Positions 166 through 23,288 of a DNA stretch of 28,980 bases are shown piece by piece; the first letter of the stretch is position 1; the number at the start of each line of letters is the position of its first letter. The translations under genes and the position numbers were made by a program. The DNA is taken from IMG/VR virus record IMGVR_UViG_2574180275_000003, one strand, 5' to 3'. This stretch comes from a virus (lineage: Duplodnaviria > Heunggongvirae > Uroviricota > Caudoviricetes). The notes under the pieces were generated by a model. The model had not been told where the DNA came from, did no database searches, and saw only the letters and a list, made by a program, of their open reading frames with translations.

Positions 166-516
166 ATGCCATCACGAATCCCACGCGCCTGCCGTAAGCG
201 TGGATGTGCAGGTACAACCACAGACAGTTCTGGTTACTGCGATAAACATCGTGGCGAAGGATGGGTACAGCATCAACGCGGACTGAGCCGCCACCAGCGT
301 GGCTATGGCTCGAAATGGGATGCCATACGTGCGCGCATACTGAAGCGTGATAATCATCTGTGTCAGAACTGCCTGCGCAATGGGAGAGCCGTTGAAGCCA
401 GAACTGTGGACCACATCATTCCGAAAGCTCATGGTGGCACGGATGCAGACAGTAACCTGCAGAGTCTGTGCTGGCCCTGTCATAAAGCAAAAACAGCGCG
501 CGAACGCATCAATTGA
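166..516 (+). CDS. HNH endonuclease, phage packaging-associated
   Basis: 116 aa with Cys pairs and the motif DHIIPKAHGG...LCWPCH; GAGGT RBS 6 nt upstream of ATG; sits directly upstream of terS/terL as in HK97-like cos phages. Confidence 0.85.
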   Translation: MPSRIPRACRKRGCAGTTTDSSGYCDKHRGEGWVQHQRGLSRHQRGYGSKWDAIRARILKRDNHLCQNCLRNGRAVEARTVDHIIPKAHGGTDADSNLQSLCWPCHKAKTARERIN

Positions 517-664: not shown

Positions 665-1147
665 ATGTCAGGACCTCCGAAAACCCCGCCACGCCTGCAT
701 TTGATTCGAGGCAACCCCTCAAAGCGCCCCGTTAAAGACCACAAAAAAACCGCTAAAAAGGATGAAAAAGGTCTTCCTAAAATTCCGCAGCATTTAGGGG
801 CTCAGGGGAAGTACTGGTTCAGGCGAATGGCGGAAGAGCTGAATGCGGAAGGGATCATTTCTCAGCTTGATGCGCGTGCGCTCGAGTTGCTGGTGGAAGC
901 CTACACCGAATATCGGCATCACTGCGAAACACTCGATGTTGAGGGGTATACCTACCGCACGGAAACGCAGAGCGGTGATGTACTGATTAAGGCGCACCCC
1001 GCGGCGGCAATGAAAGCGGATGCCTGGAAGCGGATCCGGGCAATGCTTGCAGAGTTTGGTATGTCACCGGCAAGCCGGGCTAAAGTAAATATCGCCGGAC
1101 CGGATGATGTTGATCCGCTGGCGGAGCTTTTAAAAGCGAGAGACTGA
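665..1147 (+). CDS. terminase small subunit (P27-like family)
   Basis: 160 aa starting MSGPPKTPPRLHLIRGNPSKRP; stop overlaps the terL start (TGATG); paralogous to the second terS at 15038-15394. Confidence 0.8.
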   Translation: MSGPPKTPPRLHLIRGNPSKRPVKDHKKTAKKDEKGLPKIPQHLGAQGKYWFRRMAEELNAEGIISQLDARALELLVEAYTEYRHHCETLDVEGYTYRTETQSGDVLIKAHPAAAMKADAWKRIRAMLAEFGMSPASRAKVNIAGPDDVDPLAELLKARD

Positions 1148-2340
1148 TGGCAAAAGTGGCTGACGGGATCCGCTACGCCGAACGTGTTGTTGCAGGAGAA
1201 ATTGTTGCTGGCGAATTTGTCCGCCTGGCCTGCCAGCGTTTTCTTGATGATCTGAAGTACGGCGAAGAGCGGGGGATTTATTTCAGTGAACCCCGTGCGC
1301 AGCACATCCTGAATTTCTACAAATTTGTGCCTCATGTAAAAGGGGCGCTGGCAGGCCAGCCCATTGAGTTGATGGACTGGCATGTATTTATCCTCATTAA
1401 TATTTTTGGTTTTGTCATTCCGCTGGTCAATGAAGAGACCGGGGAAGTTGTCATGCGCAGCGATGGCAGCGGACGTCCGGTGATGGTGCGCCGGTTCCGG
1501 ACGGCGTACAACGAAGTCGCCCGTAAAAACGCAAAATCAACTCTGTCATCGGGTATCGGCCTGTATATGACGGGGGCAGATGGTGAAGGCGGAGCTGAGG
1601 TGTATTCAGCCGCAACCACGCGTGACCAGGCCAGAATCGTGTTTGAAGACGCCAAAAATATGGTCAGAAAAGCCCGGTCGACACTCGGGCGGTTGTTTGA
1701 TTTCAACAAGCTGGCGATTTACCAGGAGCAGAGCGCATCAAAATTTGAACCGCTTTCTTCGGATGCAAACAACCTGGATGGTCTGAACATCCACTGCGCC
1801 ATTATTGATGAGCTGCATGCACATAAAACTCGTGACGTGTGGGACGTTCTGGAAACGGCAACCGGTGCCCGTCTGCAGTCCCTTTTATTTGGTATCACCA
1901 CGGCAGGGTTTAACAAGGAAGGGATTTGTTACGAGCAGCGTGATTACGCCATCAAGGTATTGCGTGGCTATAACAGCGACGTGGAGGGCGCGGTAAAAGA
2001 CGACTCCTACTTTGCGATTATTTACACCCTCGATGAGGGAGATGATCCGTTTGATGAAACGGTCTGGCAGAAAGCGAATCCCGGCCTGGGCATCTGTAAA
2101 CGCTGGGATGATCTGCGTCGCCTGGCGAAAAAAGCGAAAGAACAGGTCTCTGCGCGGGTGAATTTTTTTACCAAGAAAGTAACATCACGCCGTAACAACA
2201 GTGCGACCTGTCCTGATTTTTTTAGTAACCAAATGAAAGAAAAAGATTTTTTCTTGTTCGTCGTTTTTGTTTTTTCTGGATGGTTCTGGCTGTTTTCATC
2301 ATTTGTGTATTGCACTGTGTATTGCAAAAACGGGTTATAA
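1147..2340 (+). CDS. terminase large subunit, N-terminal portion; ORF interrupted near 2172-2175 by the integrated element, last ~55 codons are read-through into element DNA
   Basis: Residues 1-342 align with the N-terminal half of the intact TerL at 15378-17039 (PHVKGALAGQPIEL / PHVKGAMRGSPIEL, ARKNAKST / PRKNAKST, RDQARIVFEDAK / RDQARIVFDDAR). After ...ARVNFFTK the translation becomes low-complexity (FLFVVFVFSGWFWLF) and the matching C-terminal half is found at 17561-18292. Confidence 0.8.
   Translation: MAKVADGIRYAERVVAGEIVAGEFVRLACQRFLDDLKYGEERGIYFSEPRAQHILNFYKFVPHVKGALAGQPIELMDWHVFILINIFGFVIPLVNEETGEVVMRSDGSGRPVMVRRFRTAYNEVARKNAKSTLSSGIGLYMTGADGEGGAEVYSAATTRDQARIVFEDAKNMVRKARSTLGRLFDFNKLAIYQEQSASKFEPLSSDANNLDGLNIHCAIIDELHAHKTRDVWDVLETATGARLQSLLFGITTAGFNKEGICYEQRDYAIKVLRGYNSDVEGAVKDDSYFAIIYTLDEGDDPFDETVWQKANPGLGICKRWDDLRRLAKKAKEQVSARVNFFTKKVTSRRNNSATCPDFFSNQMKEKDFFLFVVFVFSGWFWLFSSFVYCTVYCKNGL
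2168..2174. repeat. attL core (TTACCAA), left junction of the element
   Basis: Same 7-mer recurs at 17556-17562; in both copies ACC falls in the same terL codon phase (2170-2172 and 17558-17560). Confidence 0.6.
2305..2325 (+). promoter_or_regulatory. integrase arm-type binding repeats (left end)
   Basis: Tandem GTGTATTGCACTGTGTATTGC about 130 bp inside the left core and 20 bp upstream of int; near-identical copy at 17460-17480. Confidence 0.5.
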
Positions 2341-2345
2341 ATCAC

Positions 2346-3554
2346 ATGGCGCTAAACAAACTGAGCGATAAAAAACTTCGTTCCCTGCTTGGGCGCAGGA
2401 GTGAGAGGCAGGAAACCATCGCTGATGGTAACGGGCTTTCGGTACGGGTCAGTAAATACGGATGTGTTAGTTTTGTTTTCTTTTACAGACTGGCGGGAAG
2501 GGGAACCGCGCCCATCTGGCTGACACTTGGAAAATATCCTGATCTGAGTCTCAAATCAGCGAGAGAGATGCGCGATCAGTGTCGAACCTGGCTTGCGGAG
2601 GGCAGAGATCCACGGATTCAGATAAAAATTGAACGGGAAGCCACCTTGCAACCTGTTACCGTTCGTGAGGCACTTGAATACTGGCTTGATAATTATGCAA
2701 TGGATAAGCGTAGGGGAGCAGAACATATCAGGCAGTGCTTTGGTAAACATATTTATCCGGTGATTGGTCATGTACCACTTAGTGATTGCTCTATATCTAT
2801 GTGGATCAAGTGTTTTGACAAAATAAAAAAAGTAGCACCTGTACAGGCCGGAGCTTTGTTGCGTATATCAAAACAGGCGCTTAAATTTTGTAGGGTAAGA
2901 AAATACGCGATTAGTCATGAAATTGATGATCTTGAGGTCTGTGATGTGGGAAAAAAGTCTGCGCGAAGAAGCAGGGTTTTAACAGATGATGAAATCAGAG
3001 ATTTATGGCGAAGTATTAATACTGATTATGACAATCACGAATTATCATATGAAAACCGAATTATTTTACGTTTCCTGGTAGTTTTTGGTTGTCGACTGTC
3101 AGAAGTATTACTGTCGTCCTGGGTAGAGTGGGATTTTGATAAGAAATTATGGCGCGTTCCCGCTGATCATAGCAAAAATGGCAGGGAAATAATCAGACCG
3201 ATTCCTGATGGCATGTTTAACTGGTTAGTTACGTTAAAAAAAATAACAGGTAACAAAGAAAATGTGATTGGGTTTGATATGCGTCAGTGTACGGCAAGCG
3301 TAACTATCGGTAAGACATGGAAAAGGATGAAACACTCGGAAAAATGGACGGCGCATGATATGCGAAGAGTGTTTGCCACAAAGCTAAGTGATCATGGTTT
3401 TGAACATAATGTGGTTGAACAGTTGCTTGGGCACACATTAGGCGGTGTTGCCGGGGTTTATAACAGAAGTCAGTATATGGACAGAAAAAAAGAAGCTATG
3501 AACTGGTGGTACGACTATCTGAATAAGCTAATTAGTGGTGACGGTAATGATTGA
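2346..3554 (+). CDS. int: tyrosine site-specific integrase, P4-like with N-terminal arm-binding domain
   Basis: Start taken at internal ATG 2346 (MALNKLSDKKLRSLLG...), the usual integrase N-terminus; C-terminus has HDMRR...LLGHTLGGVAGVYNRSQY (catalytic His/Arg/Tyr). The track ORF starts at 2280 inside the att region. Confidence 0.9.
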   Translation: MALNKLSDKKLRSLLGRRSERQETIADGNGLSVRVSKYGCVSFVFFYRLAGRGTAPIWLTLGKYPDLSLKSAREMRDQCRTWLAEGRDPRIQIKIEREATLQPVTVREALEYWLDNYAMDKRRGAEHIRQCFGKHIYPVIGHVPLSDCSISMWIKCFDKIKKVAPVQAGALLRISKQALKFCRVRKYAISHEIDDLEVCDVGKKSARRSRVLTDDEIRDLWRSINTDYDNHELSYENRIILRFLVVFGCRLSEVLLSSWVEWDFDKKLWRVPADHSKNGREIIRPIPDGMFNWLVTLKKITGNKENVIGFDMRQCTASVTIGKTWKRMKHSEKWTAHDMRRVFATKLSDHGFEHNVVEQLLGHTLGGVAGVYNRSQYMDRKKEAMNWWYDYLNKLISGDGND

Positions 3555-3768
3555 AATAGTTACGCGTGAAGAACTTGAAAATGATAAAACAATCGACAGG
3601 ATGATTAAGGAAGATGAATGTGCATGGTTAACAGCTCTTGGCAGGAGACACAGAGCATTACTTGAAAAGGAAGGAAAATTTCCACGGAAAATATGTATTG
3701 GCCCACAAACAAAAGTCTGGCGCTTATCTGAGGTGCTGGAATGGGTAAAGGGTGAATGGAAACCCTGA
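3547..3768 (+). CDS. alpA: AlpA-family transcriptional regulator / excisionase-like protein
   Basis: About 73 aa with ...LLEKEGKFPRKICIGPQTKVWRLSEVLEWV, the AlpA/Xis HTH pattern; start overlaps the int stop; followed by a terminator. Confidence 0.65.
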   Translation: MIEIVTREELENDKTIDRMIKEDECAWLTALGRRHRALLEKEGKFPRKICIGPQTKVWRLSEVLEWVKGEWKP

Positions 3769-3791
3769 ACTAAATTAAATGAGATATAATC

Positions 3792-3817
3792 AACCCGTCT
3801 TTTGGCGGGTTTTTTTA
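3792..3817 (+). terminator. Rho-independent terminator-like hairpin after alpA
   Basis: AACCCG-(8 nt loop)-CGGGTT followed by a T7 run. Confidence 0.5.
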
Positions 3818-3831
3818 TAGGTGATATTTTT

Positions 3832-4110
3832 ATGCAAAAATTTATTTATCCTACACCCGAAGAACGCATTCAGATTCTGAAAGATCATGGCGAACCGTAT
3901 GATCGCCGTATACGCGAACATGAGTGTGCCAATCGTACCGGGCTTTCAAGAAGCAGACGTTGGGTACTTGAACAGGAGGGAGCATTTCCTGCTCGTGCTC
4001 ATTTAGGGAAAGTGTCTGTTTCCTGGTTGCTCTCTGATGTGCTCTGGTGGGTTATGCATCCGCCAGGAGTAAAGGAAGTAAACAGCCCATACAAAAACGC
4101 CAATAAGTAA
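3832..4110 (+). CDS. second AlpA-like HTH regulator
   Basis: 92 aa from ATG 3832 (GGTGA RBS 7 nt upstream); contains TGLSRSRRWVLEQEGAFPARAHLGKVSVSWLLSDVLWWV, resembling the AlpA HTH region. Confidence 0.5.
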   Translation: MQKFIYPTPEERIQILKDHGEPYDRRIREHECANRTGLSRSRRWVLEQEGAFPARAHLGKVSVSWLLSDVLWWVMHPPGVKEVNSPYKNANK

Positions 4111-4118
4111 TTACCGAC

Positions 4119-4148
4119 AACCCCGCACCACGCAATGCGGGGTTTTTT
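4119..4148 (+). terminator. Rho-independent terminator-like hairpin
   Basis: AACCCCGCA-(7 nt)-TGCGGGGTT followed by TTTTTTG. Confidence 0.55.
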
Positions 4149-4167
4149 GTATGTGAGGTAGAAAGTG

Positions 4168-4746
4168 ATGAATAAAAATATTGCCGTGACGGGCAAGGGT
4201 GACGCACGTCATGTGAAAAAATTCTGTGATATTCGTGATCTGGTCGTTCTGCGCTTTGATGGCGTGGATGTTCGTGTGGTGTATCTAAACGGCGATCCGT
4301 GGTTTGTTGCAAAGGATGTTTGTGCTGCGCTGGAACTGACCAATTCGCGTACGGCGTTGCAGATGCTTGATGATGACGAAAAGGGAGTAAATTTAACTTA
4401 CACCCCCGGAGGAAATCAGAATATGAGCATTATCTCCGAGTCAGGTTTCTACAAACTAATAGCCCGCAGCCGCAAAGCAACGACGCCTGGCACATTTGCT
4501 CATCGTTTCAGTAACTGGGTATTCAGAAATGTGATACCGGGTATCAGAAAAACGGGGGCTTATGGTATCCCGTGGGGCGCATTACAGGATTTTTCCCGCC
4601 GCAAAGAGCAATACCAGATAAGTGCCAGTGAGAAGGGGAGGGAGCTACAGGCATGTAAGCGCAAAAAGCGTGAGCTGGAGGAAGAAGAAAAAAGGCTGAT
4701 ACGTGAATACCAGCCTGAGTTTTACTTTGGTGAGCGTATTCAGTAA
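4168..4746 (+). CDS. Bro-N domain protein (antirepressor-like)
   Basis: 192 aa; N-terminal RFDGVDVRVVYLNGDPWFVAKDVCAALEL...ISESGFYKLIARSRK matches the Bro-N pattern; GAGGTAG RBS 6 nt upstream of ATG 4168. Confidence 0.7.
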   Translation: MNKNIAVTGKGDARHVKKFCDIRDLVVLRFDGVDVRVVYLNGDPWFVAKDVCAALELTNSRTALQMLDDDEKGVNLTYTPGGNQNMSIISESGFYKLIARSRKATTPGTFAHRFSNWVFRNVIPGIRKTGAYGIPWGALQDFSRRKEQYQISASEKGRELQACKRKKRELEEEEKRLIREYQPEFYFGERIQ

Positions 4747-5032
4747 CCACACGCGGTGTTGATTATACGGTACATCGTGTTGACCGGGAAGCTACCCACC
4801 AGCAAGGCAAAATCTTCTGCTAAAAAATGACATATGGCCAGTCGTCCGGAAAGCATGAAATTTTACAAAAATGGAAAATGAAGATTTTTATTGTGCTGGT
4901 GGGTAAAAACAAAAAGCGCCCCGTTGCCGGAGCGCCCTTGCGAACAATTAACCTACTGCGCAAAAAATGAATCTGTGCGGGGGAATTATATCAACCGCGT
5001 GGAGAAGCGCCACAATTGCCGAATAACAGGCA

Positions 5033-5061
5033 AAACAAAGGCCACCCGCTACGGTGGCCCT
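5033..5061 (-). terminator. terminator-like hairpin for leftward transcription
   Basis: Perfect inverted repeat GGCCACC-cgctac-GGTGGCC at 5042-5061; on the minus strand it is followed by TTTGTTTTG. Confidence 0.4.
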
Positions 5062-5098
5062 TCAACACAAGCTACACGTTATCCCCAACGCATGAGCA

Positions 5099-5311
5099 TT
5101 ACCGACAATGCCACATTTGCGGCTGGTGGGCAATGTGATCAGTCAGATTTGGTTCGTTCCAAGGTTTGCAACGAGAGCTTTTCCTGTGCTCTTTAAGGAA
5201 TTGCTCAAGGGCAAAAGCACATGGCGCGAATCTTTCTGATTCATGCTCTATCTTTCTGCGCCGTCTTTTCCGTGTCGGTGATAATGTTTTGGTCAATTCT
5301 TTATCGGTCAT
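5099..5311 (-). CDS. hypothetical small basic protein (start at MTDKE...)
   Basis: 70 codons with AGGA 7 nt upstream of the ATG at 5311-5309; lies between the Arc-like gene and the minus-strand hairpin. No family recognised. Confidence 0.3.
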   Translation of the reverse strand: MTDKELTKTLSPTRKRRRRKIEHESERFAPCAFALEQFLKEHRKSSRCKPWNEPNLTDHIAHQPQMWHCR

Positions 5312-5368
5312 TGTGTTGTCCTGCATAGCAATGCGCCGTAATACCTTACACCACGGCGCTGGTGATGG

Positions 5369-5674
5369 TTATTCCTGCTCTTTGGCCTTGCGACGCTGGA
5401 GTTCTTCACGTGCGACGGTGACGAGCTGCCCGATCTCCTCGACAGCTTTGACTCCGATTTTTTCCACCTGCGCCAGCGCATCGAGCGAAGAAACCAGGGG
5501 ATTTTCTCCGCTTCCTTCTGCCTGGCGGCGGGCGATCTCACCGCGTACAGCCGTAACTATAAAATTCGCTTTAGTTTCCCCTGGCTGTAGGGATGCCTCA
5601 ATGCCACTCACTACTTCATGTGGAAATCTGGCATTCAGTTGCTGTGATTTATTGTTAACAGAACTCGTGGACAT
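5369..5674 (-). CDS. Arc/MetJ-type ribbon-helix-helix DNA-binding protein (candidate repressor of the element)
   Basis: Start at internal ATG 5674-5672 with GGAGGTG RBS; N-terminus ...QQLNARFPHEVVSGIEASL resembles the Arc beta-strand motif (FNLRWPREV); divergent from the rightward replication operon. Confidence 0.55.
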   Translation of the reverse strand: MSTSSVNNKSQQLNARFPHEVVSGIEASLQPGETKANFIVTAVRGEIARRQAEGSGENPLVSSLDALAQVEKIGVKAVEEIGQLVTVAREELQRRKAKEQE

Positions 5675-5717
5675 GTTTGCACCTCCGATTAATAACGGGA
5701 TGCAGTGTAATACAAAA

Positions 5718-5772
5718 GTGAATACCAAAAAAGACTTGAAATGGTATTCACCAAAATGTAATCTGAATACCA
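5718..5772. promoter_or_regulatory. operator-like inverted repeats in the divergent promoter region
   Basis: GTGAATACCA (5718-5727) and its reverse complement TGGTATTCAC (5742-5751), plus a third half-site TGAATACCA (5764-5772), 45-100 bp upstream of the Arc-like start. Confidence 0.45.
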
Positions 5773-5873
5773 CAAGGGCTGATACATGCAATTCAGCAAT
5801 TGAAACGACGAAGCCCCGCACTGTTGGAGCAGTAACGGGGCTTCTAACCAAACCGTTAACTGGAGTAACGATT

Positions 5874-6074
5874 ATGGCTGTAAGACAGCATACCCCACGA
5901 CTTGCGCACACACAAACGGTCTTTGTGTGGCGTTTTCTGGCACTAAGTGCCGGAGAATCTCAAATCGTCCACGTAACCGCCTGGACGGAACGCGAAGCGC
6001 GTAACCGTTGCCCGTCCGGTTGTGTCGCTGTATTCGCCGCCCGTATTCGTCAGGGGGTGCGCCATGTGCAATAA
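5874..6074 (+). CDS. Icd-like small protein (host cell division inhibitor-like family of P4-type elements)
   Basis: 66 aa from ATG 5874 (GGAG about 8 nt upstream): MAVRQHTPRLAHTQTVFVWRFLAL...TAWTEREARNRCPSGCVAVFAARI, matching my memory of Icd-like proteins. It is the 3' end of the long track ORF 5166-6074, whose 5' part is antisense to the Arc-like gene. Confidence 0.45.
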   Translation: MAVRQHTPRLAHTQTVFVWRFLALSAGESQIVHVTAWTEREARNRCPSGCVAVFAARIRQGVRHVQ

Positions 6075-6303
6075 AAACACGCCGGACGCAGCCGCCGAAG
6101 CCATCAAAACGCTAATGCACGCGCTGATTGATATTTCATGCACGGCAGCAACCGCAGAAAAACACATTACCAGAGAGCCGGAATATACAGGGGCGATAAT
6201 CCCGCATTCACTGGCATACGCACAGCTTACCGCTGATATGGCACTGAATGAGGCCAGGGCTATCCTGATTGCTGATTGTGAAAATGGGGGGGGTTATGCG
6301 TGA
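6064..6303 (+). CDS. hypothetical protein
   Basis: 79 aa from ATG 6064 (AGGGGGTG upstream); overlaps neighbours on both sides, suggesting operon coupling. Confidence 0.4.
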   Translation: MCNKNTPDAAAEAIKTLMHALIDISCTAATAEKHITREPEYTGAIIPHSLAYAQLTADMALNEARAILIADCENGGGYA

Positions 6304-6529
6304 TGATCGTTTTAATGCCCTGAAACAGGAATTTGATGGCGCACCGGAACATACAGGCGATGCGTTGTTATGCGTTGCCGACATGATGAAAGCCGCATTT
6401 TTTCTTATCAGTACCAGTGGCTACAGGTCAGAGGGTGTGGAGATTCTCAATATTGCGTCGGACTATGCGGAATATGTTGCAGAGGCGCGTTACAGAAGAA
6501 AATTCCCGGAGGATGTAAGCCATGGATAA
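6296..6529 (+). CDS. hypothetical protein
   Basis: 77 aa from ATG 6296 preceded by a G7 run; overlaps the previous stop. Confidence 0.4.
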   Translation: MRDDRFNALKQEFDGAPEHTGDALLCVADMMKAAFFLISTSGYRSEGVEILNIASDYAEYVAEARYRRKFPEDVSHG

Positions 6530-6665
6530 AATCCCTTTCGATGTTCTTATTCATTCTGAGAATGCATTAATCAGGGCGCTTGAATTAAAAACGGTACTGG
6601 ATGAATTAACCGAAAATAACACCGAGCGGGGGGGTATTTACTTTCTGCTTTCAGCACTCTGTTAA
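6522..6665 (+). CDS. hypothetical small protein (47 aa)
   Basis: ATG 6522 with GGAGGA 9 nt upstream, overlapping the previous stop; MDKIPFDVLIHSENALIRALELKTVLDELTENNTERGGIYFLLSALC. Below the ORF track size cutoff. Confidence 0.25.
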   Translation: MDKIPFDVLIHSENALIRALELKTVLDELTENNTERGGIYFLLSALC

Positions 6666-6735
6666 CCCCGGTTATTGATGAATTAAACGCGGTTATGGAA
6701 ATGCACGACAAGACCCGCGCAGAGGAATAAAAACC

Positions 6736-7050
6736 ATGAAAAAGAAAAATTCTGGCTTTACTGCCAGCGGCCTCCCTCGGCCTGAAATCCGCCCCGACGA
6801 TATTTTCAAAGATAAATACGGCGGACGAATAACGATAAAAACCGTTGACGATTTTCGCGTGACTTATATCCGCGAAGGTTATGCGCATCCCTGCGTGTCG
6901 TCTCATATGCGTTTTGAGAGTGAATTCACCCTGGTAAGCAAAGCACCACCAGCGAACTTAAGCGACATCGACAGAATCATGCGCGTTACAGGTATGGAAC
7001 GCATTAAGGCAGTACGTGAAATTATTCGTGAACGGGGAAAGGCAAAATGA
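6736..7050 (+). CDS. hypothetical protein (possibly DUF4222-like), coupled to the primase gene
   Basis: 104 aa; GAGGAA RBS 8 nt upstream; stop overlaps the primase start (ATGA). Family call is a tentative recollection. Confidence 0.45.
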   Translation: MKKKNSGFTASGLPRPEIRPDDIFKDKYGGRITIKTVDDFRVTYIREGYAHPCVSSHMRFESEFTLVSKAPPANLSDIDRIMRVTGMERIKAVREIIRERGKAK

Positions 7051-15394: not shown

Positions 15395-17039
15395 GTACGC
15401 AGAAGGCGTAAAAAACGGCAAAATTACGGCCTGTAAACGACTGAAACAGGCCGTTAAACGGTATTTTTCTGACCTTGAAAACCCCCTTTACACGTTCGAT
15501 CCGGAGGTCGTGGAGCGGTTTATTGCCTTTTCCAGGGTGTGTCCGCACGTAAAAGGCGCAATGCGCGGTAGCCCCATTGAGCTGGAGCCGTGGCAGCAGT
15601 TCGCCTTTGCGTGCATCCTGGGCTTTAAGGTTAAGGCCACCGGACGGCGCAAATACACCAGCGCATTCATTGAAGTGCCGCGAAAAAATGCCAAATCCAC
15701 GGTCGCCGCTATCCTGGCTAACTGGTTTCTGGTTATGGAAAACGGGCAGCAGGATATTTACACCGCCGCCGTGAGTCGTGATCAGGCGCGGATCGTGTTT
15801 GATGATGCGCGTCAGATGTGCCTTTTATCCCGACCGTTGCGAAAGCGGGTAAATATTCAGGCACACAAGGTGATACACCCGAAAACCAACAGCCTGTTAA
15901 AGCCACTGGCAGCAAAAGCGGCAACCATTGAAGGTACAAACCCGAGTCTTGCCATTGTGGATGAATATCACCTGCACCCTGACAACGGGGTTTATTCCGC
16001 GCTTGAACTGGGAATGGGGGCGCGTCCGGAGGGGTTATTATTTGCCATCACCACATCGGGGAGCAACGTTGTTTCAGCCTGTAAACAACACTACGACTAT
16101 TGCTGCCAGATACTGGATGGTGAAGAGGTGAACGAATCCATGTTCGTGCTGATTTACGAGCTGGATGATGAAAGCGAGGTTGACGATCCGGCGATGTGGA
16201 TAAAGGCGAATCCCAATATCGATGTTTCCGTCGATCGTGAAAAACTGGCCTCAACCATCCAGAAAGCGCGGGGTATTCCGTCGCAGTGGGTGGAAATGCT
16301 CACCAAGCGATTCAATATCTGGTGTCAGGGGGCCACGCCGTGGATGGGTAACGGTGCATGGGCGGAGTGCGCCGGAACGTTCGCGGAGGCGGATTTATAC
16401 GGGCAGGAGTGCTACGCGGGGCTGGACTTATCATCAACCAGCGATATTTCCAGCGTGTGCTATGCCTTTCCGGTCGGTAAAAAGATTATGCTGGTTTCCC
16501 GTCACTATCTGCCGGAATTTCAGCTACAGAACCCCGCCAATAAAAACCGCGCCATCTATCGCCAGTGGGTAAAGGCGGGCTGGATACGCACAACACCGGG
16601 TGACTGCATTGATTATGACCGTATCCGTGATGACATCATGGCGGATGCAGAGAATTTCAATATCAGGCTGGTGGGTTTCGATACATGGAACGCCACGCAC
16701 CTGAGGACGCAGCTACAGGGCGCAGGATTTGAGGTGGAGCCGTTCCCGCAAACATACCTTCGTTTCAGTCCGGCGGCGAAATCGTTCGAAGTTTTTGTTA
16801 ACCGGAAGGTGATTGTGCATCGTGGTGATCCGGTGCTGGCCTGGTCAATGAGTAATGTTGTGATGCAGAGTGACGCGAACGCCAATATCAAGCCGAACAA
16901 GAAAAAATCATCCAACAAGATAGACCCGAGCGTTGCGGCGCTGATGGCGTTTGGCACATTCCAGGCAGAACATGAGGAATTTGCATTCGATATGAGCGAC
17001 AGCCACAAAGAGCGGCTTGCGACGTTTGATGGTGTGTAA
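15378..17039 (+). CDS. terminase large subunit (intact)
   Basis: 553 aa; apparent TTG start at 15378 with GAGGAAGAGGA upstream, overlapping the terS 3' end; aligns across its whole length with the two prophage terL fragments. Confidence 0.9.
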   Translation: MTAWHEYAEGVKNGKITACKRLKQAVKRYFSDLENPLYTFDPEVVERFIAFSRVCPHVKGAMRGSPIELEPWQQFAFACILGFKVKATGRRKYTSAFIEVPRKNAKSTVAAILANWFLVMENGQQDIYTAAVSRDQARIVFDDARQMCLLSRPLRKRVNIQAHKVIHPKTNSLLKPLAAKAATIEGTNPSLAIVDEYHLHPDNGVYSALELGMGARPEGLLFAITTSGSNVVSACKQHYDYCCQILDGEEVNESMFVLIYELDDESEVDDPAMWIKANPNIDVSVDREKLASTIQKARGIPSQWVEMLTKRFNIWCQGATPWMGNGAWAECAGTFAEADLYGQECYAGLDLSSTSDISSVCYAFPVGKKIMLVSRHYLPEFQLQNPANKNRAIYRQWVKAGWIRTTPGDCIDYDRIRDDIMADAENFNIRLVGFDTWNATHLRTQLQGAGFEVEPFPQTYLRFSPAAKSFEVFVNRKVIVHRGDPVLAWSMSNVVMQSDANANIKPNKKKSSNKIDPSVAALMAFGTFQAEHEEFAFDMSDSHKERLATFDGV

Positions 17040-17120
17040 CGGAATGGATGAGAGAGGACAATGCTCATTTAATGGAATAAATTTTCAGTATTATCGGCAC
17101 CCACTTTCAGGGATGTTTTT

Positions 17121-17272
17121 GCGGGTTATTTGAGGACGGGGGCGGGTTATTTTGAATGTCTTGCGGGTTATATTCTGGCTGATATCTAGATACGTTGTTT
17201 TTTAACGCATTGATATTAAAGAGTAAAAAATACTTAGCACGCGAAGATAACCCGCTAACCCGCATAACCCGC
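17121..17272. repeat. iteron cluster 2 (same 9-mer as cluster 1), candidate second cis-acting replication site
   Basis: GCGGGTTAT at 17121, 17142 and 17163 (21-bp spacing), AT-rich spacer, then ATAACCCGC / TAACCCGC / ATAACCCGC contiguous at 17247-17272. Confidence 0.6.
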
Positions 17273-17459
17273 ACTGTTTTGTATATATATACGAAAAATT
17301 GCATTCAGGGGGGGGATCGAAATTTCTACTGCCTCTTATCTCTTTGAGTGCTCACCTCGTCAGATTGTTACACACAAGAAATAAAAAATGCTTCGCGATG
17401 GTAGGTCGAATCACTGTATCAAAAAACGGTGTGTATCAGCATTAAAACAATACAGATAC

Positions 17460-17480
17460 GTGTATTGCGCTGTGTATTGC
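17460..17480 (+). promoter_or_regulatory. integrase arm-type binding repeats (right end)
   Basis: GTGTATTGCGCTGTGTATTGC, same motif and orientation as 2305-2325, about 75 bp inside the right core. Confidence 0.5.
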
Positions 17481-17555
17481 TTGATGATTTATAAAGACTG
17501 TTTTTTCATGTTAAACGATTGATATACAGGTGATTTTAAAAAACTTGAAATATTC

Positions 17556-17562
17556 TTACCAA
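17556..17562. repeat. attR core (TTACCAA), right junction of the element
   Basis: Identical to 2168-2174; the downstream codons AAA CAC ATG AAT GTG continue the terL frame. Confidence 0.6.
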
Positions 17563-17566
17563 ACAC

Positions 17567-18292
17567 ATGAATGTGTGGGTAACAGCAGAGTCTGCCTGGA
17601 TGGACATGATTAAGTGGGATAAGTGCGAATACATTGCCCCACGACATGAGCTGAAAACGTATCCCATGTGGGTCGGCGTTGACCTTGCTCATAAGATTGA
17701 TATCTGTGCGGCGGCAAAACTCTGGCGAACGGATAACGGGCATGTTCATGCCGATTTTAAATTCTGGCTTCCGGAAGGACGGCTGGAACGATGCTCGCGG
17801 CAGCAGGCAGAACTTTACCGGAAGTGGGCGGAGATGGATAAGCTGATTCTGACGGATGGTGATGTTATCGATCATGCTCAGATAAAAAGTGACTTACTGG
17901 AATGGATTGGTGGTGAAAACCTCAGGGAACTGGGATTTGACCCGTGGAGCGCGATGCAGTTCAGCCTGGCACTGGCTGAAGAAGGGATACCGCTGGTGGA
18001 GGTTCCGCAGACGGTTCGCAATCTGTCAGAGGCCATGAAGGAAACGGAATCACTGGTCTATGCCGGGCGTTTCCATCACAGCAATCATCCGGTCATGAAC
18101 TGGATGATGTCTAACGTTACGGTAAAACCGGACAAAAACGACAATATCTTCCCGAATAAATCCACGCTGGAAGCCAAAATCGACGGCCCTGTTGCGATGT
18201 TTACAGCAATGAGCCGGATGCTGGTCAATGGTGGTGAACCGGAGCTGGATCTGTCTGAACATCTGGTCAGCGTGGGCATCCGCTCGCTTTAA
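17567..18292 (+). CDS. terminase large subunit, C-terminal portion (nuclease domain); frame is open from the att core at 17558
   Basis: Aligns with the C-terminal half of the satellite TerL ([16 protein letters not shown] / KRFNIWCQGATPWMGN onward); together with 1147-2172 it makes one ORF of about 585 codons. Confidence 0.8.
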
Positions 18293-18303: not shown

Positions 18304-18486
18304 ATGTTTCTGATAATTCTCGCGCCACTGGTGGGCGTGCTGGGGGCGCTTTTGCTGGCGTATGGTGCCTGGCTGATTTATCCCCCGGCGGGTTTTGTTG
18401 TTGCCGGGGTGCTGTGCCTGTTCTGGTCGTGGCTGGTGGCGCGATATCTCGACCGTACACAGCCGTCTGTCGGCGGAGGTAAATAG
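18304..18486 (+). CDS. small membrane protein (two predicted transmembrane helices)
   Basis: 60 aa, [26 protein letters not shown]...[26 protein letters not shown]; wedged between terL and portal. Confidence 0.5.
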
Positions 18487-19727
18487 TGTTCTTTTCGGGA
18501 TTATTTCAACGAAAAAGTGATGCGCCGGTGACCACGCCAGCAGAGCTGGCGGATGCCATCGGGTTGTCTTACGACACCTATACCGGAAAGCAGATCAGCA
18601 GTCAGCGGGCCATGCGACTGACGGCGGTTTTTTCCTGCGTCAGAGTGCTGGCAGAGTCGGTCGGGATGTTGCCCTGCAATCTGTATCACCTGAACGGCAG
18701 CCTGAAACAGAGGGCCACCGGCGAACGTCTGCATAAGCTGATCTCCACGCATCCCAATGGCTATATGACGCCGCAGGAGTTCTGGGAGCTGGTGGTCACC
18801 TGTCTGTGCCTGAGGGGAAACTTTTACGCCTACAAAGTGAAAGCATTTGGCGAAGTGGCTGAACTGCTGCCCGTCGATCCCGGTTGTGTGGTACCGAAGC
18901 TTAACAGTCGCTGGGAGCCGGTCTATCAGGTCACATTCCCGGACGGTTCCACGGATGTACTGAGCCAGGAAGATATCTGGCATGTGCGCACGCTGACGCT
19001 GGACGGTCTGGTGGGACTGAATCCCATCGCCTATGCCCGCGAGGCAATATCGCTGGCAGCAGCGACCGAAGAGCACGGGGCCAGACTGTTCAGCAATGGT
19101 GCGGTGACGTCCGGTGTGTTGCGTACAGAACAGACGCTGTCGGATCAGGCTTATGAGCGCCTGAAGAAAGATTTTGAGGAGCGTCACACCGGGCTTGGCA
19201 ATGCTCACCGCCCGATGATCCTTGAGATGGGGCTGGACTGGAAGTCGATGGCGCTGAACGCCGAGGACAGCCAGTTCCTGGAAACCCGCAAGTTTCAGCT
19301 TGAAGAAATCTGTCGTCTGTTCCGGGTGCCGTTGCACATGGTGCAGAACACCGATCGCGCCACCTTCAACAATATCGAAGAGCTGGGGCTCGGATTTATC
19401 AACTATTCACTGGTGCCGTATCTGACCCGCATCGAACAGCGGATCAACACCGGACTGGTACGAAAAAGTAAGCAGGGCGTTTATTACGCCAAATTTAACG
19501 CCGGGGCGTTACTGCGCGGGGATATGAAGTCCCGTTTTGAAGCCTACGCCACCGGGATTAACTGGGGAATTTACTCTCCCAATGACTGCCGCGACCTGGA
19601 AGATATGAATCCGCGTCCCGGTGGTGATGTCTATCTCACACCGATGAACATGACCACGAAACCCTCCGATGGCAGTAAAGCCGGTAAGCAGAAGGATAAC
19701 GCCAATGCAGACGAAACAACGTCTTGA
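18486..19727 (+). CDS. portal protein
   Basis: 413 aa, GTG start with GGAGGT RBS, overlapping the preceding stop by 1 nt; homologous to the satellite portal. Confidence 0.85.
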   Translation: MFFSGLFQRKSDAPVTTPAELADAIGLSYDTYTGKQISSQRAMRLTAVFSCVRVLAESVGMLPCNLYHLNGSLKQRATGERLHKLISTHPNGYMTPQEFWELVVTCLCLRGNFYAYKVKAFGEVAELLPVDPGCVVPKLNSRWEPVYQVTFPDGSTDVLSQEDIWHVRTLTLDGLVGLNPIAYAREAISLAAATEEHGARLFSNGAVTSGVLRTEQTLSDQAYERLKKDFEERHTGLGNAHRPMILEMGLDWKSMALNAEDSQFLETRKFQLEEICRLFRVPLHMVQNTDRATFNNIEELGLGFINYSLVPYLTRIEQRINTGLVRKSKQGVYYAKFNAGALLRGDMKSRFEAYATGINWGIYSPNDCRDLEDMNPRPGGDVYLTPMNMTTKPSDGSKAGKQKDNANADETTS

Positions 19728-20355
19728 TGTACCGCTGAGTCTGAAATCTGTCAGTGACTCCGGTGAGTTTGAAGGGTATGGCTCCGTCTTTGGTGTAAAG
19801 GACAGCCACGATGATGTGGTGATGTCCGGGGCATTTGCTGCTTCCCTGCGGGCGTGGAGTGACAGAAAAGCGTTACCTGCGCTGCTCTGGCAGCACCGCA
19901 TGGATGAACCCATCGGTGTTTACACCGAAATGAAGGAAGACGATGTCGGGCTTTACGTCAGGGGACGGTTGCTTATTGATGATGATCCCCTCGCAAAACG
20001 CGCACATGCACACATGAAGGCCGGTTCGTTAACCGGCCTTTCTATTGGGTACGTCCTGAAAGACTGGGAATACGACCGGAGCAAAGAAGCCTTTCTGCTG
20101 AAAGAAATCGACCTCTGGGAAGTCAGCCTGGTGACGTTCCCGTCTAACGACGAGGCGCGGATCAGCGACGTCAAGAACGCACTGGCCCGCGGGGAAATCC
20201 CCGAACAGAAAAAAATCGAAAGAGTCCTGCGTGATGTCGGACTCTCCCGTACCCAGGCCAAAGCATTCATGGCCGGGGGCTATGGCGCACTGTCCCTGCG
20301 CGACGCTGAGGATGTGGGCTCTGCACTGAATGCACTGAAAAATCTGAACTTCTAA
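19705..20355 (+). CDS. prohead protease, HK97 family
   Basis: Start at internal ATG 19705 (MQTKQRLDVPL...) with AAGGA RBS; overlaps the portal 3' end; homologous to the satellite protease. Confidence 0.8.
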   Translation: MQTKQRLDVPLSLKSVSDSGEFEGYGSVFGVKDSHDDVVMSGAFAASLRAWSDRKALPALLWQHRMDEPIGVYTEMKEDDVGLYVRGRLLIDDDPLAKRAHAHMKAGSLTGLSIGYVLKDWEYDRSKEAFLLKEIDLWEVSLVTFPSNDEARISDVKNALARGEIPEQKKIERVLRDVGLSRTQAKAFMAGGYGALSLRDAEDVGSALNALKNLNF

Positions 20356-20369
20356 TCAGGAGAAATACG

Positions 20370-21575
20370 ATGGCGGTTGATATTAAAGATGTCGAACAGG
20401 TCGCGCAGGAGCTGCAGCAGAAGTTTGACGACTTCAAAGCAAAGAACGACAAGCGCGTGGATGCGATTGAGCAGGAAAAAGGCAAACTTGCCGGACAGGT
20501 GGAAACCCTGAACGGGAAACTCAGCGAGCTGGAAAACCTCAAAAGCGATCTTGAAAAAGAGCTGCTTGAGCTGAAACGTCCGGCAGGTGGTGCGCAAAAT
20601 AAACTGGCCACCGAGCATAAAGAAGCGTTTGTGGGCTTCCTGCGTAAAGGCCGTGAAGATGGTCTGCGCGATCTGGAGCGCAAGGCATTACAGGTGGGCA
20701 CCGATGAAGACGGCGGCTATGCCGTGCCGGAAGCACTGGATCGCAACATTCTCACCCTGCTGAAAGATGAAGTGGTGATGCGCCAGGAAGCCACGGTGAT
20801 CACCGTTGGTGGTTCCGACTACAAAAAACTGGTGAATCTGGGCGGCACGGCTTCCGGATGGGTTGGCGAGACTGACGCGCGCTCCCAGACTGCCACCTCA
20901 AAACTGGGCCTGATTGAACCTTTCATGGGGGAAATCTACGGTAACCCGCAGGCCACCCAGAAAATGCTGGATGATGCCTTTTTCAACGTGGAAGCATGGA
21001 TCAACAGCGAGCTGGCAACCGAATTTGCCGAACAGGAAGAAATTGCCTTTACCACCGGCGATGGTACCAAGAAGCCGAAAGGGTTCCTGGCGTATGAATC
21101 CACGGATGAAACCGATAAGGTCCGGGCGTTCGGCAAACTTCAGCATATTGTATCCGGCGACGCGACGGCGGTGACCGCAGACGCCATTATCAAACTGATT
21201 TACACGCTGCGTAAGGCACACCGCACCGGCGCGAAGTTCATGATGAACAACAACAGCCTGTTTGCCATCCGTCTGCTGAAAGACAGCGAGGGTAACTATC
21301 TGTGGCGTCCGGGGCTGGAGCTGGGGCAGCCGTCCTCTCTGGCGGGTTACGGTATCGCTGAAAACGAACAGATGCCGGATATCGCCGCTGATGCGAAAGC
21401 CATTGCATTTGGTAACTTCAAACGGGGTTACACCATCGTTGACCGTATCGGCACCCGCATTCTGCGTGACCCGTACACCAATAAACCGTTTGTCGGTTTT
21501 TATACCACCAAACGCACCGGCGGCATGCTGGTCGATTCGCAGGCCATCAAACTGCTGAAGATTGCAGCGGCGTAA
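20370..21575 (+). CDS. major capsid protein, HK97-fold, with N-terminal coiled-coil delta domain
   Basis: 401 aa; AGGAGA RBS; paralogous to 10672-11841. Confidence 0.85.
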   Translation: MAVDIKDVEQVAQELQQKFDDFKAKNDKRVDAIEQEKGKLAGQVETLNGKLSELENLKSDLEKELLELKRPAGGAQNKLATEHKEAFVGFLRKGREDGLRDLERKALQVGTDEDGGYAVPEALDRNILTLLKDEVVMRQEATVITVGGSDYKKLVNLGGTASGWVGETDARSQTATSKLGLIEPFMGEIYGNPQATQKMLDDAFFNVEAWINSELATEFAEQEEIAFTTGDGTKKPKGFLAYESTDETDKVRAFGKLQHIVSGDATAVTADAIIKLIYTLRKAHRTGAKFMMNNNSLFAIRLLKDSEGNYLWRPGLELGQPSSLAGYGIAENEQMPDIAADAKAIAFGNFKRGYTIVDRIGTRILRDPYTNKPFVGFYTTKRTGGMLVDSQAIKLLKIAAA

Positions 21576-21583
21576 TCATTCAG

Positions 21584-21603
21584 GGGGCGCAGAAGTGCGC
21601 CCC
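21584..21603 (+). terminator. stable hairpin after the capsid gene
   Basis: GGGGCGCA-gaag-TGCGCCCC starting 9 bp after the stop codon; weak U-tract (tgttctg). Confidence 0.4.
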
Positions 21604-21625
21604 TGTTCTGACAGGTGAAAGAATC

Positions 21626-21814
21626 ATGATCCTGAAACAAGATCTGAAATGGTCACCGGACGGTATGCGTGTTGAGATTATTCGGGCCGGTGAGTATGAA
21701 GATAAAGAATTACCCGAACGGGTACGCGAAATTGCCACTGCAGCTGGGATTGTCTCTGATAAGAGAACACCTGTTGCGCGGGGGGCTGATAAGTCTAAAA
21801 AACAGCATTCATAG
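21626..21814 (+). CDS. hypothetical protein
   Basis: 62 aa; AGGTGA RBS 7 nt upstream. No family recognised. Confidence 0.4.
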   Translation: MILKQDLKWSPDGMRVEIIRAGEYEDKELPERVREIATAAGIVSDKRTPVARGADKSKKQHS

Positions 21815-21825
21815 AGGTTGCCCAA

Positions 21826-22131
21826 ATGATGCCCACTCTGGAAGAGCTTCGTGTTCAGTGCCGGATTGATGATGACAATGAACAGGAGAATTCTCTTCTT
21901 ATGATGTATCTGGCTGCCGCCAGGGAAGAGGCTGAAAAGTTTTTAAACCGGACGCTTTACGATGAAACTGTTTCTGAGCAGGATACGACCGGGCTTGTAA
22001 TAACACCTCTGATAAAACTGCGTCTTATGCAACTGGTTGGCTACTGGTACGAGAACAGGGAAATGCAGGATGCAGTGCCTGATTTTTTCTATACCGGACT
22101 GCGGATGTATCGGTTTCATCCCGGGACATAG
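21826..22131 (+). CDS. head-tail connector protein (gp6-like)
   Basis: 101 aa; position after the capsid gene; N-terminus resembles the satellite connector. Confidence 0.6.
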   Translation: MMPTLEELRVQCRIDDDNEQENSLLMMYLAAAREEAEKFLNRTLYDETVSEQDTTGLVITPLIKLRLMQLVGYWYENREMQDAVPDFFYTGLRMYRFHPGT

Positions 22132-22139
22132 GAGGATTC

Positions 22140-22478
22140 ATGCAGGCAGGAAGATTACGTGATCGTGTGGTTATTCTGAATGCCACCACCGTTCGGTCTC
22201 CATCAGGGCACCCTGTGGAAACAATGACGGAAGGGGCAACCATATGGGCAGAAGTTAAGGGGATCAGTGGCAGGGAGAGAATATCCGGAGGCGCAGAAAC
22301 TGCTCAGGCTACAGTGAGGGTCTGGATGAGATTCCGGCGAGATGTGACAGCAACTTCATGTCTGAAAGTGCTGACTGGCGCATTCAAAGGCGCGATTCTG
22401 AGTATAGACGGTCCGCCGATACCGGATGCCCGTGCCACCCGGCTTGAGATACTCTGTTCTCAGAAGGGGAATGTGTGA
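22140..22478 (+). CDS. head-tail adaptor / head closure protein
   Basis: 112 aa; GGAGGA RBS; close paralog of the satellite protein at 13678-14016. Confidence 0.7.
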   Translation: MQAGRLRDRVVILNATTVRSPSGHPVETMTEGATIWAEVKGISGRERISGGAETAQATVRVWMRFRRDVTATSCLKVLTGAFKGAILSIDGPPIPDARATRLEILCSQKGNV

Positions 22479-22924
22479 TGGATTTCAGTCTTGATTTTTC
22501 AGGTCTGGCGGATATTGCACGGGATCTGGAGACGCTCAGCAGGGCAGAAAACAATAAGGTGCTGCGCGATGCCACCCGTGCCGGTGCTGAAGTTATGCGG
22601 GATGCAGTTGTTGAACGTGCGCCGGAGCGAACCGGGAAACTGAAGAAAAATGTGGTTGTTCTCACTCAGCGTTCAAAGCGTCGGGGGGAAATTATCTCGG
22701 GTGTCCACATTCGTGGACGGAACCTGCGAACCGGAAACAGTGATAACAGCATGAAAGCCAGCGATCCCCGAAATGCGTTTTACTGGCGCTTTGTGGAGCT
22801 GGGAACGATAAACATGCCCGCGCATCCGTTCATTCGCCCGGCTTTCGATACGACAGAGGAACTGGCAGCACAGATTGCCATACAGCGAATGAATCAGGCT
22901 ATTGATGAGGTCTTAAGTAAATGA
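22478..22924 (+). CDS. HK97 gp10-like tail component
   Basis: About 148 aa, start coupled to the adaptor stop (GTG 22475 or ATG 22478); sequence MDFSLDFSGLADIARDLETL...KLKKN matches my memory of the gp10 family. Confidence 0.6.
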   Translation: MDFSLDFSGLADIARDLETLSRAENNKVLRDATRAGAEVMRDAVVERAPERTGKLKKNVVVLTQRSKRRGEIISGVHIRGRNLRTGNSDNSMKASDPRNAFYWRFVELGTINMPAHPFIRPAFDTTEELAAQIAIQRMNQAIDEVLSK

Positions 22925-23265: not shown

Positions 23266-23288
23266 GATCGTTAATGATTTTCCCCCCC

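Follow-up and report, generated by a model that had tools for sequence, protein, structure and literature searches.

How a prophage comes to carry a large terminase gene (terL) that is interrupted by a 15.4-kb element, and what the interruption implies for both partners, is the question raised by this locus. The window, by which we mean the entire 28,980-nucleotide stretch of DNA analyzed, is best explained by a cf-PICI-type satellite residing in the terL gene of its helper phage. We are rather confident that excision of this satellite would rebuild terL and gate helper packaging, and that the satellite would form its own capsids and use helper tails. The following features define the interruption.

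1147..2174, + strand: N-terminal fragment of helper terL, codons 1-343; ATPase domain complete, nuclease domain cut
2168..2174, + strand: attL core TTACCAA, the same as the 'ttaccaa' att identity published for group A_Terminase_1_246
2175..17562, + strand: 15,388-bp helper-embedded satellite of the cf-PICI type, reading in the direction of the helper late operon
17556..17562, + strand: attR core TTACCAA, with agreement between the window and the published attR strings
17563..18292, + strand: C-terminal fragment of helper terL, codons 344-585; remainder of the nuclease domain

As the first-pass annotation had proposed, the ORF at 1147..2340 is TerL-like as far as ...ARVNFFTK (codon 343, end at 2174/2175) and then loses homology, adding 54 junk codons before a stop at 2338-2340 in AT-rich DNA (36% GC over 2175-2345). 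The C-terminal half was expected to resume at the right junction, and the frame of 17567..18292 is indeed open from 17555, with the C-terminal part of terL following. The shared core forms a 7-bp direct repeat in the same codon phase at both ends of the element, also as anticipated, and the predicted attB falls within terL codons 341-343 (F-T-K). Joining 1147-2174 to 17563-18292 yields a stop-free ORF of 1758 nt and 585 aa, in which Pfam identifies TerL_ATPase (residues 112-268) and TerL_nuclease (residues 283-563). The joined protein aligns with the satellite TerL (15378-17039) at 31% identity over 567 aa (residues 10-575). The alignment is gapless at the junction, as had been claimed for the joined flanks, indicating that the two helper fragments are adjacent, non-overlapping parts of one full-length TerL. 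Two details require correction. The packaging ATPase had been described as split; the gene is split, but it is the nuclease domain that is interrupted, and the N-terminal fragment retains the whole ATPase domain. Likewise, a 15.4-kb element had been placed at 2168-17562; the size stands, but the element proper spans 2175-17562 (15,388 bp, or 15,395 bp with both cores).

The uninterrupted gene predicted for related genomes was readily found. At least 24 complete E. coli genomes carry the 600-nt reconstructed junction without interruption and at 100% identity, and 11 sequenced phages carry it at 95-99% identity; the terL junction is uninterrupted in 905 of 5426 genomes, and the exact 27-mer from the first-pass annotation is present in 115 IMG/VR contigs. 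Judged from sequence, the agreement between the reconstructed junction and uninterrupted terL is far beyond chance. The occupied site recurs as well, the same terL-integrase junction (attL) being shared by 36 complete genomes, E. coli 042 and UMNF18 among them. Insertions in complete genomes sit within full lambdoid late operons; a late-operon context is seen in loci L001, L002, and L006. The best match among complete E. coli genomes is 98.1% identical over 90% of the element. A scaffolding artefact, in which assembly across a short repeat placed a satellite contig inside a prophage contig, would suit junctions that are marked by a 7-bp repeat only. Identical junctions recur in three metagenome contigs and in dozens of genomes that were closed independently, which renders this explanation scarcely credible, and we rejected it.

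The predicted excision products are attB AATTTTTTTACCAAACACATGAATGTG and attP ATATTCTTACCAAGAAAGTAACATC, and the reconstructed attP contains two copies of a doubled motif.

2304..2326, + strand: doubled arm-type motif TGTGTATTGCACTGTGTATTGCA, +133 to +155 from the attP center
17459..17481, + strand: doubled arm-type motif CGTGTATTGCGCTGTGTATTGCT, -100 to -78 from the attP center

This arrangement corresponds to the one reported for helper-embedded PICIs (HE-PICIs) by Tommasini, Mageeney & Williams (2023, NAR Genom Bioinform 5:lqad036, PMC10111431), who describe a doubled tgTGTATTGCantgTGTATTGCa motif in two co-oriented copies, 81 ± 2 bp upstream and 132 ± 2 bp downstream of the attP center; how closely our -100 to -78 agrees with the upstream distance depends on the reference point that the authors used for it. 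The doubled motif is present in eight of eight terL-embedded loci fetched and absent from three chromosomal relatives. The same publication already sets out the terL insertion site and its logic. Its catalogue places 61 elements with the core 'ttaccaa' in site group A:Terminase_1:245/246 (A_Terminase_1_246), among them those of E. coli 042 (Eco33.15) and SZTY01000058.1 (Eco15611.15). The latter (locus L006) is the closest sequence found, being 99.84% identical to window positions 1-19164, integrase gene included (19.2 kb with 24 mismatches and 5 gaps). This near-identity gives strong, though indirect, support for a probable place of the window integrase in the HE-PICI integrase clade. The window element shares with this group the target gene and codon, the catalogued 'ttaccaa' block at both ends, the attL and attR flanks, and the spacing of the doubled TGTATTGC. 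It lies inside a prophage late gene, disrupts terL, has an uninterrupted attB in reference genomes, and carries int, alpA, and primase genes (+ strand) co-oriented with the late operon. Its four zones follow the HE-PICI order of integration (Int, AlpA), Bro, replication (primase, SSB), and late genes, and we find no structural difference from the published group.

The element might instead be an ordinary chromosomal cf-PICI that integrated off target, with terL serving as a chance attB look-alike and not as a dedicated site. Elements L005, L008, and L012 encode an identical primase protein at chromosomal sites next to other integrases, with 94.7-99.8% DNA identity over shared replication, head, and packaging segments, and HE-PICI integrases do insert off target, for example off-A_246 in yeaN. 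Yet the chromosomal relatives have different integrases and lack the doubled motif, whereas the terL site is used in the 36 complete genomes and by the 61 published elements, the integrases of the latter forming a site-specific subclade. The core also co-varies with synonymous terL variants (TTACCAA vs TCACGAA). Off-target insertion is therefore very improbable, and we discarded it on the strength of site recurrence, the integrase subclade, and core co-variation.

The gene content of the satellite, assigned from Pfam and PHROG results, is as follows.

2346..3554, + strand: tyrosine integrase, 402 aa (Pfam Arm-DNA-bind_3 E = 1e-17, Phage_integrase E = 1.4e-18)
3535-3768 and 3802-4110, + strand: two AlpA-family genes, putative excisionase/activator (Pfam Phage_AlpA E = 2.5e-9 and 7.2e-10)
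4165..6530, + strand: Bro zone, Bro-N anti-repressor-like gene (4165-4746) and small ORFs (Pfam)
6736..9803, + strand: replication zone, with DUF4222 (6736-7050), DUF927 primase/helicase (7047-9167), and SSB (9378-9803)
9807..10097, + strand: PerC-family transcriptional activator gene (Pfam PerC E = 2.9e-35)
10672..14309, + strand: head module, with major capsid (10672-11841), prohead protease (11896-12456), portal (12368-13681), head closure (13678-14016), and head-tail connector (14013-14309)
14309..17039, + strand: packaging module, with HNH (14309-14749), TerS (14897-15394), and TerL (15378-17039)

The integrase is intact, including its arm-binding domain, and the motifs RLSE, HDMRR, GH, and VY were assigned by eye to the catalytic residues R, H-x-x-R, H, and Y. 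Together with the two AlpA genes, the identical cores, the arm-type motifs, the exact empty sites, and recurrence in 36 genomes, it supports the original proposal of an integrative satellite inside a prophage terL. Within the Bro zone, the ORF at 5166-6074 has a repressor-like C-terminus, and two strong terminator-like hairpins are located on the minus strand (4912-4939 and 5037-5062). P4-like C4/isrK immunity RNAs, which are reported in some HE-PICIs, were sought with Rfam over the whole window, yielding no matches at gathering thresholds. No tail or lysis genes were detected among the coding-strand satellite ORFs of at least 60 aa that were scanned.

These features closely resemble those of cf-PICIs (Alqurainy et al., bioRxiv 10.1101/2022.09.08.507074), whose prototype EcCIEDL933 is 15.4 kb. 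The likeness comprises the int-alpA-rep backbone, the Proteobacteria order of capsid-protease-portal-connectors followed by hnh-terS-terL, the lack of tail and lysis genes, a length of 15.4 kb (criterion ~10-15 kb), an HNH-dependent cos phage as helper, and the primase shared with chromosomally integrated cf-PICI-like elements. Unlike cf-PICIs, for which the search demanded chromosomal att sites never occupied by prophages, the present element has its attB inside a prophage gene; the original paper applied the chromosomal site as a filter in its search, not as a mechanistic feature. The cf-PICI chimeric-particle preprint makes no mention of prophage-embedded sites, and the HE-PICI paper works without the cf-PICI concept (PMC10111431). 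From the gene content, we infer that the satellite would build its own small capsids and take only tails from the helper.

The helper is an HK97-like, HNH-dependent lambdoid E. coli prophage, of which the window holds neither the early region nor the ends.

166..516, + strand: helper HNH endonuclease, upstream of terS in the late operon (Pfam HNH E = 1.9e-16)
665..1147, + strand: helper TerS, P27-family small terminase (Pfam Terminase_4 E = 2.3e-25)
18486..28980, + strand: remaining helper late operon, with portal, protease, capsid, connectors, tail tube, chaperones, and tape measure, all open

Upstream of the helper HNH, locus L006 (99.84% identical) has the Q antiterminator along with holin, lysozyme, and lysis genes. 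Satellite and helper head-closure proteins are 63% identical, whereas the other head and packaging proteins with a match reach 27-42% (portal, capsid, and connector 32-37%, HNH 42%, TerS 27%, TerL 31%; no match was reported for the protease). The high head-closure value fits a satellite head that would dock on helper tails. When helper and satellite DNA were compared for a shared cos site or recombination tract, the only homology found was a single 78-bp stretch, 81% identical, within the head-closure genes.

Another explanation is that the satellite made a dead-end insertion in a decaying prophage, leaving a remnant composite that can no longer be induced and a split terL that is a pseudogene without regulatory role. 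RefSeq does annotate both terL pieces as pseudogenes: in E. coli 042 and APEC17, the counterpart of the N-terminal piece is labeled 'terminase large subunit, missing C-terminus', and that of the C-terminal piece 'terminase TerL endonuclease subunit, missing N-terminus'. In the APEC17 helper, a cro/cI-family gene is frameshifted. In addition, many HE-PICI helpers look truncated according to the authors, who recovered no virions for their induced element (PMC10111431). The excised attP junction (exact 28-mer or 25-mer) gave 0 matches in IMG/VR, JGI metagenomes, and GTDB representative genomes, in exact-match scans that would miss sequence variants. A satellite-arm 29-mer gave 0 matches in GTDB representative genomes and matched three metagenome contigs, each of which shows the integrated attL form; these scans thus give no sign, in silico, that the satellite occurs free or packaged. 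Decay is nevertheless hard to reconcile with the state of the locus, in which every satellite ORF and every helper late ORF in the window is open, the two cores match exactly, and neither arm motif is damaged. Moreover, the int-att module is 97-99% conserved over the 36 complete genomes, which are of diverse origin, while the satellite backbones vary, a pattern that indicates repeated active integration rather than one inherited relic. The sister element 11capE, located in the capsid gene (E), excises precisely: excision, attB restoration, and composite replication were demonstrated by qPCR and deep sequencing, for this element alone (PMC10111431). On balance, we consider the remnant explanation unlikely.

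The preferred reading, that of a satellite whose precise excision would regenerate terL and to which helper packaging would be tied, is supported by the anatomy of the locus and suggests the following course of events. The satellite tyrosine integrase would have recombined attP (TTACCAA core, doubled TGTATTGC arms at approximately -80/-100 and +133) with attB in terL. In the lysogen, helper TerL is broken inside its nuclease domain, such that the helper would be unable to make a functional terminase. After prophage induction, Q-dependent late transcription would run through the lysis genes, HNH, terS, and the N-terminal part of terL into the co-oriented int and alpA genes. Int and AlpA would then excise the satellite and rebuild terL precisely, and the satellite may replicate with its own primase and SSB. 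Small capsids would be assembled from the satellite capsid, protease, portal, and connectors and filled with satellite DNA by its own HNH/TerS/TerL, only the tails being taken from the helper. Helper packaging would be held back until the satellite has left. Concerning read-through, no + strand terminator-like sites were detected at 2174-2346 or 17039-17562. Inside the satellite, + strand terminator-like hairpins occur at 3792, 4119, and 10402, and these could block read-through unless antiterminated.

The spacer between attL and int contains one further feature.

2246..2251, + strand: T6 homopolymer, whose length variants (effective +1 nt) fuse the N-terminal terL frame to int

In the window and four other loci, the N-terminal terL frame stops 5 nt upstream of the int ATG; the remaining four of nine loci have a T tract that is one base longer (T6 vs T7/T8), producing an in-frame TerL(1-343)-Int ORF of 802 aa. 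We note that this terL-int fusion has otherwise been flagged as an annotation nuisance ('reannotate terminase/int fusion'). The 5-nt gap has the geometry of termination-reinitiation, and it is conceivable, if rather doubtful, that satellite int expression is hard-wired to translation of the broken terL and that terL disruption is a dedicated anti-helper weapon. Were the T tract a functional switch, excision might be timed or tuned to helper late translation; with a full packaging module of its own, the satellite would pay nothing for disrupting terL.

Self-splicing introns, inteins, and homing endonucleases in terL are selfish insertions of 0.3-1.5 kb that are removed at the RNA or protein level. 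The satellite resembles them in lying inside terL while preserving the eventual function of the gene, but its 15.4 kb form a replicon that a tyrosine recombinase would cut out of the DNA itself. We considered an intron- or intein-like element as an explanation and rejected it. Regulated gene integrity, or 'active lysogeny', is exemplified by the skin element in sigK and phi10403S in comK. There too, an integrative element splits a gene that precise excision restores at a defined stage, although the gene interrupted here belongs to another mobile element, the helper phage. HE-PICI regulation is thought to serve the satellite and not the host cell, and the active lysogeny concept is cited in that context (PMC10111431). 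Because the site, core, attP motif, regulatory idea, and a near-identical element were all published in 2023, the window adds no new kind of biology. Equipped with a terminase and a capsid of its own, the satellite loses nothing when it breaks the packaging motor of its helper. Helper-embedded satellites would represent a virus parasite lodged inside an essential viral gene, with viral reproduction gated on the excision of the parasite.

The helper prophage terL is interrupted in frame. Its N-terminal portion lies in an ORF (1147..2340) that encodes a large terminase up to ...ARVNFFTK and then runs through 54 codons of AT-rich DNA (2175-2345 has 36% GC) before stopping at 2338-2340. The C-terminal reading is open from 17555, in the frame of the ORF 17567..18292, and the heptamer TTACCAA occurs at 2168-2174 and 17556-17562 in identical codon phase. 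The first-pass annotation had described an element with a common core at both junctions, and the ORFs, core positions and phase bear this out. It had also proposed that the flanks rejoin to a full terL. Joining 1147-2174 to 17563-18292 indeed yields a stop-free ORF of 1758 nt (585 aa) with the Pfam domains TerL_ATPase (residues 112-268) and TerL_nuclease (residues 283-563). The break at codon 343 therefore falls within the nuclease domain and leaves the ATPase domain whole in the N-terminal fragment, a slight correction to the earlier description of a split packaging ATPase. The rebuilt protein aligns to the satellite TerL (15378-17039) with 31% identity over residues 10-575, ungapped at the junction. 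Both fragments are therefore adjacent parts of a single gene. The satellite terL reads CTCACCAAG at the attB-homologous position (16299-16320, codons M-L-T-K-R-F). This TCACCAA matches six of seven core bases, and its flanks, which are unlike those of attB, presumably keep the satellite from integrating into its own terL.

A 7-bp repeat by itself is weak evidence; the empty site is decisive. The predicted junctions are AATTTTTTTACCAAACACATGAATGTG for attB, the empty terL site, and ATATTCTTACCAAGAAAGTAACATC for attP, the joined satellite ends. At least 24 complete E. coli genomes contain the in silico repaired junction (600 nt) without interruption and at 100% identity, and 905 of 5426 genomes have it uninterrupted. 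Eleven sequenced Escherichia phages, phi467 and vB_EcoM-606R7 among them, match it at 95-99% identity. A search for uninterrupted terL with the exact 27-mer of the first-pass annotation, AATTTTTTTACCAAACACATGAATGTG, returns 115 IMG/VR contigs. Among complete genomes, 36 have the terL-N/integrase junction of an occupied site, E. coli 042 and UMNF18 being two of them; this amounts to about 4% of genomes with this terL type. The terL pieces of E. coli 042 and APEC17, both annotated by RefSeq as pseudogenes, stand in a lambdoid late operon with the order antiterminator, lysis genes, HNH, TerS, TerL-N, satellite, TerL-C, portal, protease, capsid, tail.

Helper-embedded PICIs (HE-PICIs) were defined in 2023 by Tommasini, Mageeney and Williams, who report 491 such satellites; these use 14 sites within nine late genes of prophages, and their integrases form one clade (PMC10111431). 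In site group A_Terminase_1_246 (A:Terminase_1:245 in the paper's text) the att identity block is "ttaccaa", and we count 61 members in its published listing, from E. coli, E. albertii, Escherichia sp. and Arsenophonus (PMC10111431).

Published members of A_Terminase_1_246 recovered here, with the matching hits (H) or fetched loci (L)
Eco33.15: FN554766, E. coli 042; H60 / H129
Eco4041.15: CP016546; H54
Eco146.15: AGTD01000001, UMNF18; H79
Eco4004.15: CP015229; H91
Eco8512.15: CP027447; H89
Eco15611.15: SZTY01000058.1; L006

Helper Eco33.57, located at zinT|mtfA in E. coli 042, carries Eco33.15. The published attL and attR strings match the window at about 2110-2275 and 17508-17640 at nearly every base, and window 1-19164 is collinear with Eco15611.15 at 99.84% identity. 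The diagnostic HE-PICI attP feature is tgTGTATTGCantgTGTATTGCa, a doubled motif placed 81+/-2 bp upstream of the attP centre and again 132+/-2 bp downstream of it (PMC10111431). Our reconstructed attP carries it at -100..-78 and +133..+155; it is present in eight of eight fetched terL-embedded loci and none of three chromosomal relatives. Site group, att strings, identity to Eco15611.15 and doubled motif therefore make the satellite a member of the published family at its published site. Whether the insertion site had been described, as the earlier reading asked, is thus settled. Its inference of an excision-restorable terL is sound, and site, core, motif and model were already published in 2023, with a near-identical element catalogued (PMC10111431). 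The core varies between TTACCAA and TCACGAA (in a contig of ERZ791603 and in the published table); published variants also include TCACAAA. F-T-K in terL is encoded by either of the first two (TTT ACC AAA versus TTC ACG AAA), so the att cores track synonymous drift of the terL target.

The satellite spans 2175-17562 (15,388 bp), and its principal genes all lie on the + strand.

Features of the satellite
2346-3554, +: tyrosine integrase with arm-binding domain (integration zone)
+: two AlpA genes (integration zone)
+: Bro-N anti-repressor-like gene and small ORFs (Bro zone)
+: DUF4222, DUF927 primase/helicase and SSB (replication zone)
9807-10097, +: PerC-family transcriptional activator
+: head module of major capsid (10672-11841), prohead protease, portal, head closure and head-tail connector
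+: packaging module of HNH, TerS and TerL (15378-17039)

The satellite has no tail or lysis genes, and it agrees with the capsid-forming PICIs (cf-PICIs) of Proteobacteria in gene content, gene order and size (15.4 kb). Satellite and helper share 27-42% identity in those head and packaging proteins that match, apart from head closure at 63% (13678-14016 versus 22140-22478); no match is reported between the prohead proteases. The only DNA homology between the two is a 78-bp stretch of 81% identity in the head-closure gene, which is absent from the E. coli 042 satellite variant. The 63% identity fits a satellite head that would have to dock on helper tails, and the pattern suggests that the head-tail interface recently underwent gene capture or exchange.

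Several smaller features accompany this architecture. The PerC-family gene is kept in all related satellites, terL-embedded or chromosomal. In pathogenic E. coli the LEE virulence island is under the control of PerC/Pch homologues, so satellites carrying this gene could influence virulence gene expression. The minus strand of the Bro zone has two strong terminator-like hairpins (4912-4939 and 5037-5062; 12 and 10 pairs) in a region with no Rfam match. Neither Pfam nor PHROG gives an assignment for the overlapping + strand ORF (4891-5196), and related loci have a called minus-strand ORF of 101 aa nearby; the region may specify an immunity or antisense transcript. In the interval that separates the satellite terL from the right attP arm is a 65-aa minus-strand ORF (17107-17304), also called in Eco15611.15, with no Pfam or PHROG match. 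Four loci (L004, L005, L008, L010) have a 94-aa + strand ORF in its place, so this slot is a small variable cargo site.

At the sequence level, the element is integrated site-specifically at terL codons 341-343 and disrupts the nuclease domain. Its Int/AlpA/att apparatus is intact, the element is co-oriented with the late operon, and its head and packaging module is self-sufficient. Q-antiterminated late transcription would pass from terL-N into int/alpA; no terminator-like sites are found between 2174 and 2346. Int and AlpA would then excise the satellite and restore terL. By analogy with the prototype cf-PICI EcCIEDL933 (Alqurainy et al., bioRxiv 10.1101/2022.09.08.507074), the satellite would replicate, make its own small capsids, self-package with its own HNH/TerS/TerL and take tails from the helper. 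Because it would need no helper TerL, breaking terL should cost it nothing and delay the helper. [quoted passage not shown] The locus could instead be a dead-end remnant. Virions were not recovered even for 11capE, and many HE-PICI helpers look truncated to the authors (PMC10111431). Exact-match searches of IMG/VR, JGI metagenomes and GTDB representatives find no excised attP junction, all three metagenome contigs with a satellite arm are in the integrated form, and the helper is seen in the window without prophage early region or ends. A dead end therefore stays a minor rival, and we consider it improbable.

The T-tract in the attL-int spacer (2246-2251) differs in length between loci: the window has T6, E. 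coli 042 has T7 and APEC17 has T8. In the T6 form, terL-N is read to the TAA at 2338-2340, 5 nt ahead of the int ATG (2346). In +1 variants of the tract, the TerL(1-343) frame reads on into Int as a fusion, called in L011 as an ORF of 802 aa. Four of the nine loci examined (E. coli 042, APEC17, L007 and L011) carry such a fusion; these cases are marked merely 'reannotate terminase/int fusion' in the 2023 paper (PMC10111431).

The element at locus L010 (DBIUHK010000003.1, GCA_050597555.1; locus coordinates 5937-22121) is a hybrid. On the left a different integrase (413 aa) lies beside chromosomal yejM; on the right are the terL-type doubled motif, a TTACCAA attR, terL-C and a phage portal. The hybrid appears to have arisen by homologous recombination of a chromosomal cf-PICI with a terL-embedded one, an event that would entail a large deletion or inversion; misassembly is also possible.

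Our two small additions to the published account are the geometry coupling terL-N to int and an explicit tie of terL-site HE-PICIs to cf-PICI architecture, a term not used in the HE-PICI paper (PMC10111431). An identical primase protein occurs in chromosomal elements of the same backbone with other integrases, two adjoining the ilvG leader (L005, L008) and one near rcnB (L012). The terL-targeting int/att module is thus a replaceable front part, joined to a cf-PICI backbone that these elements share.
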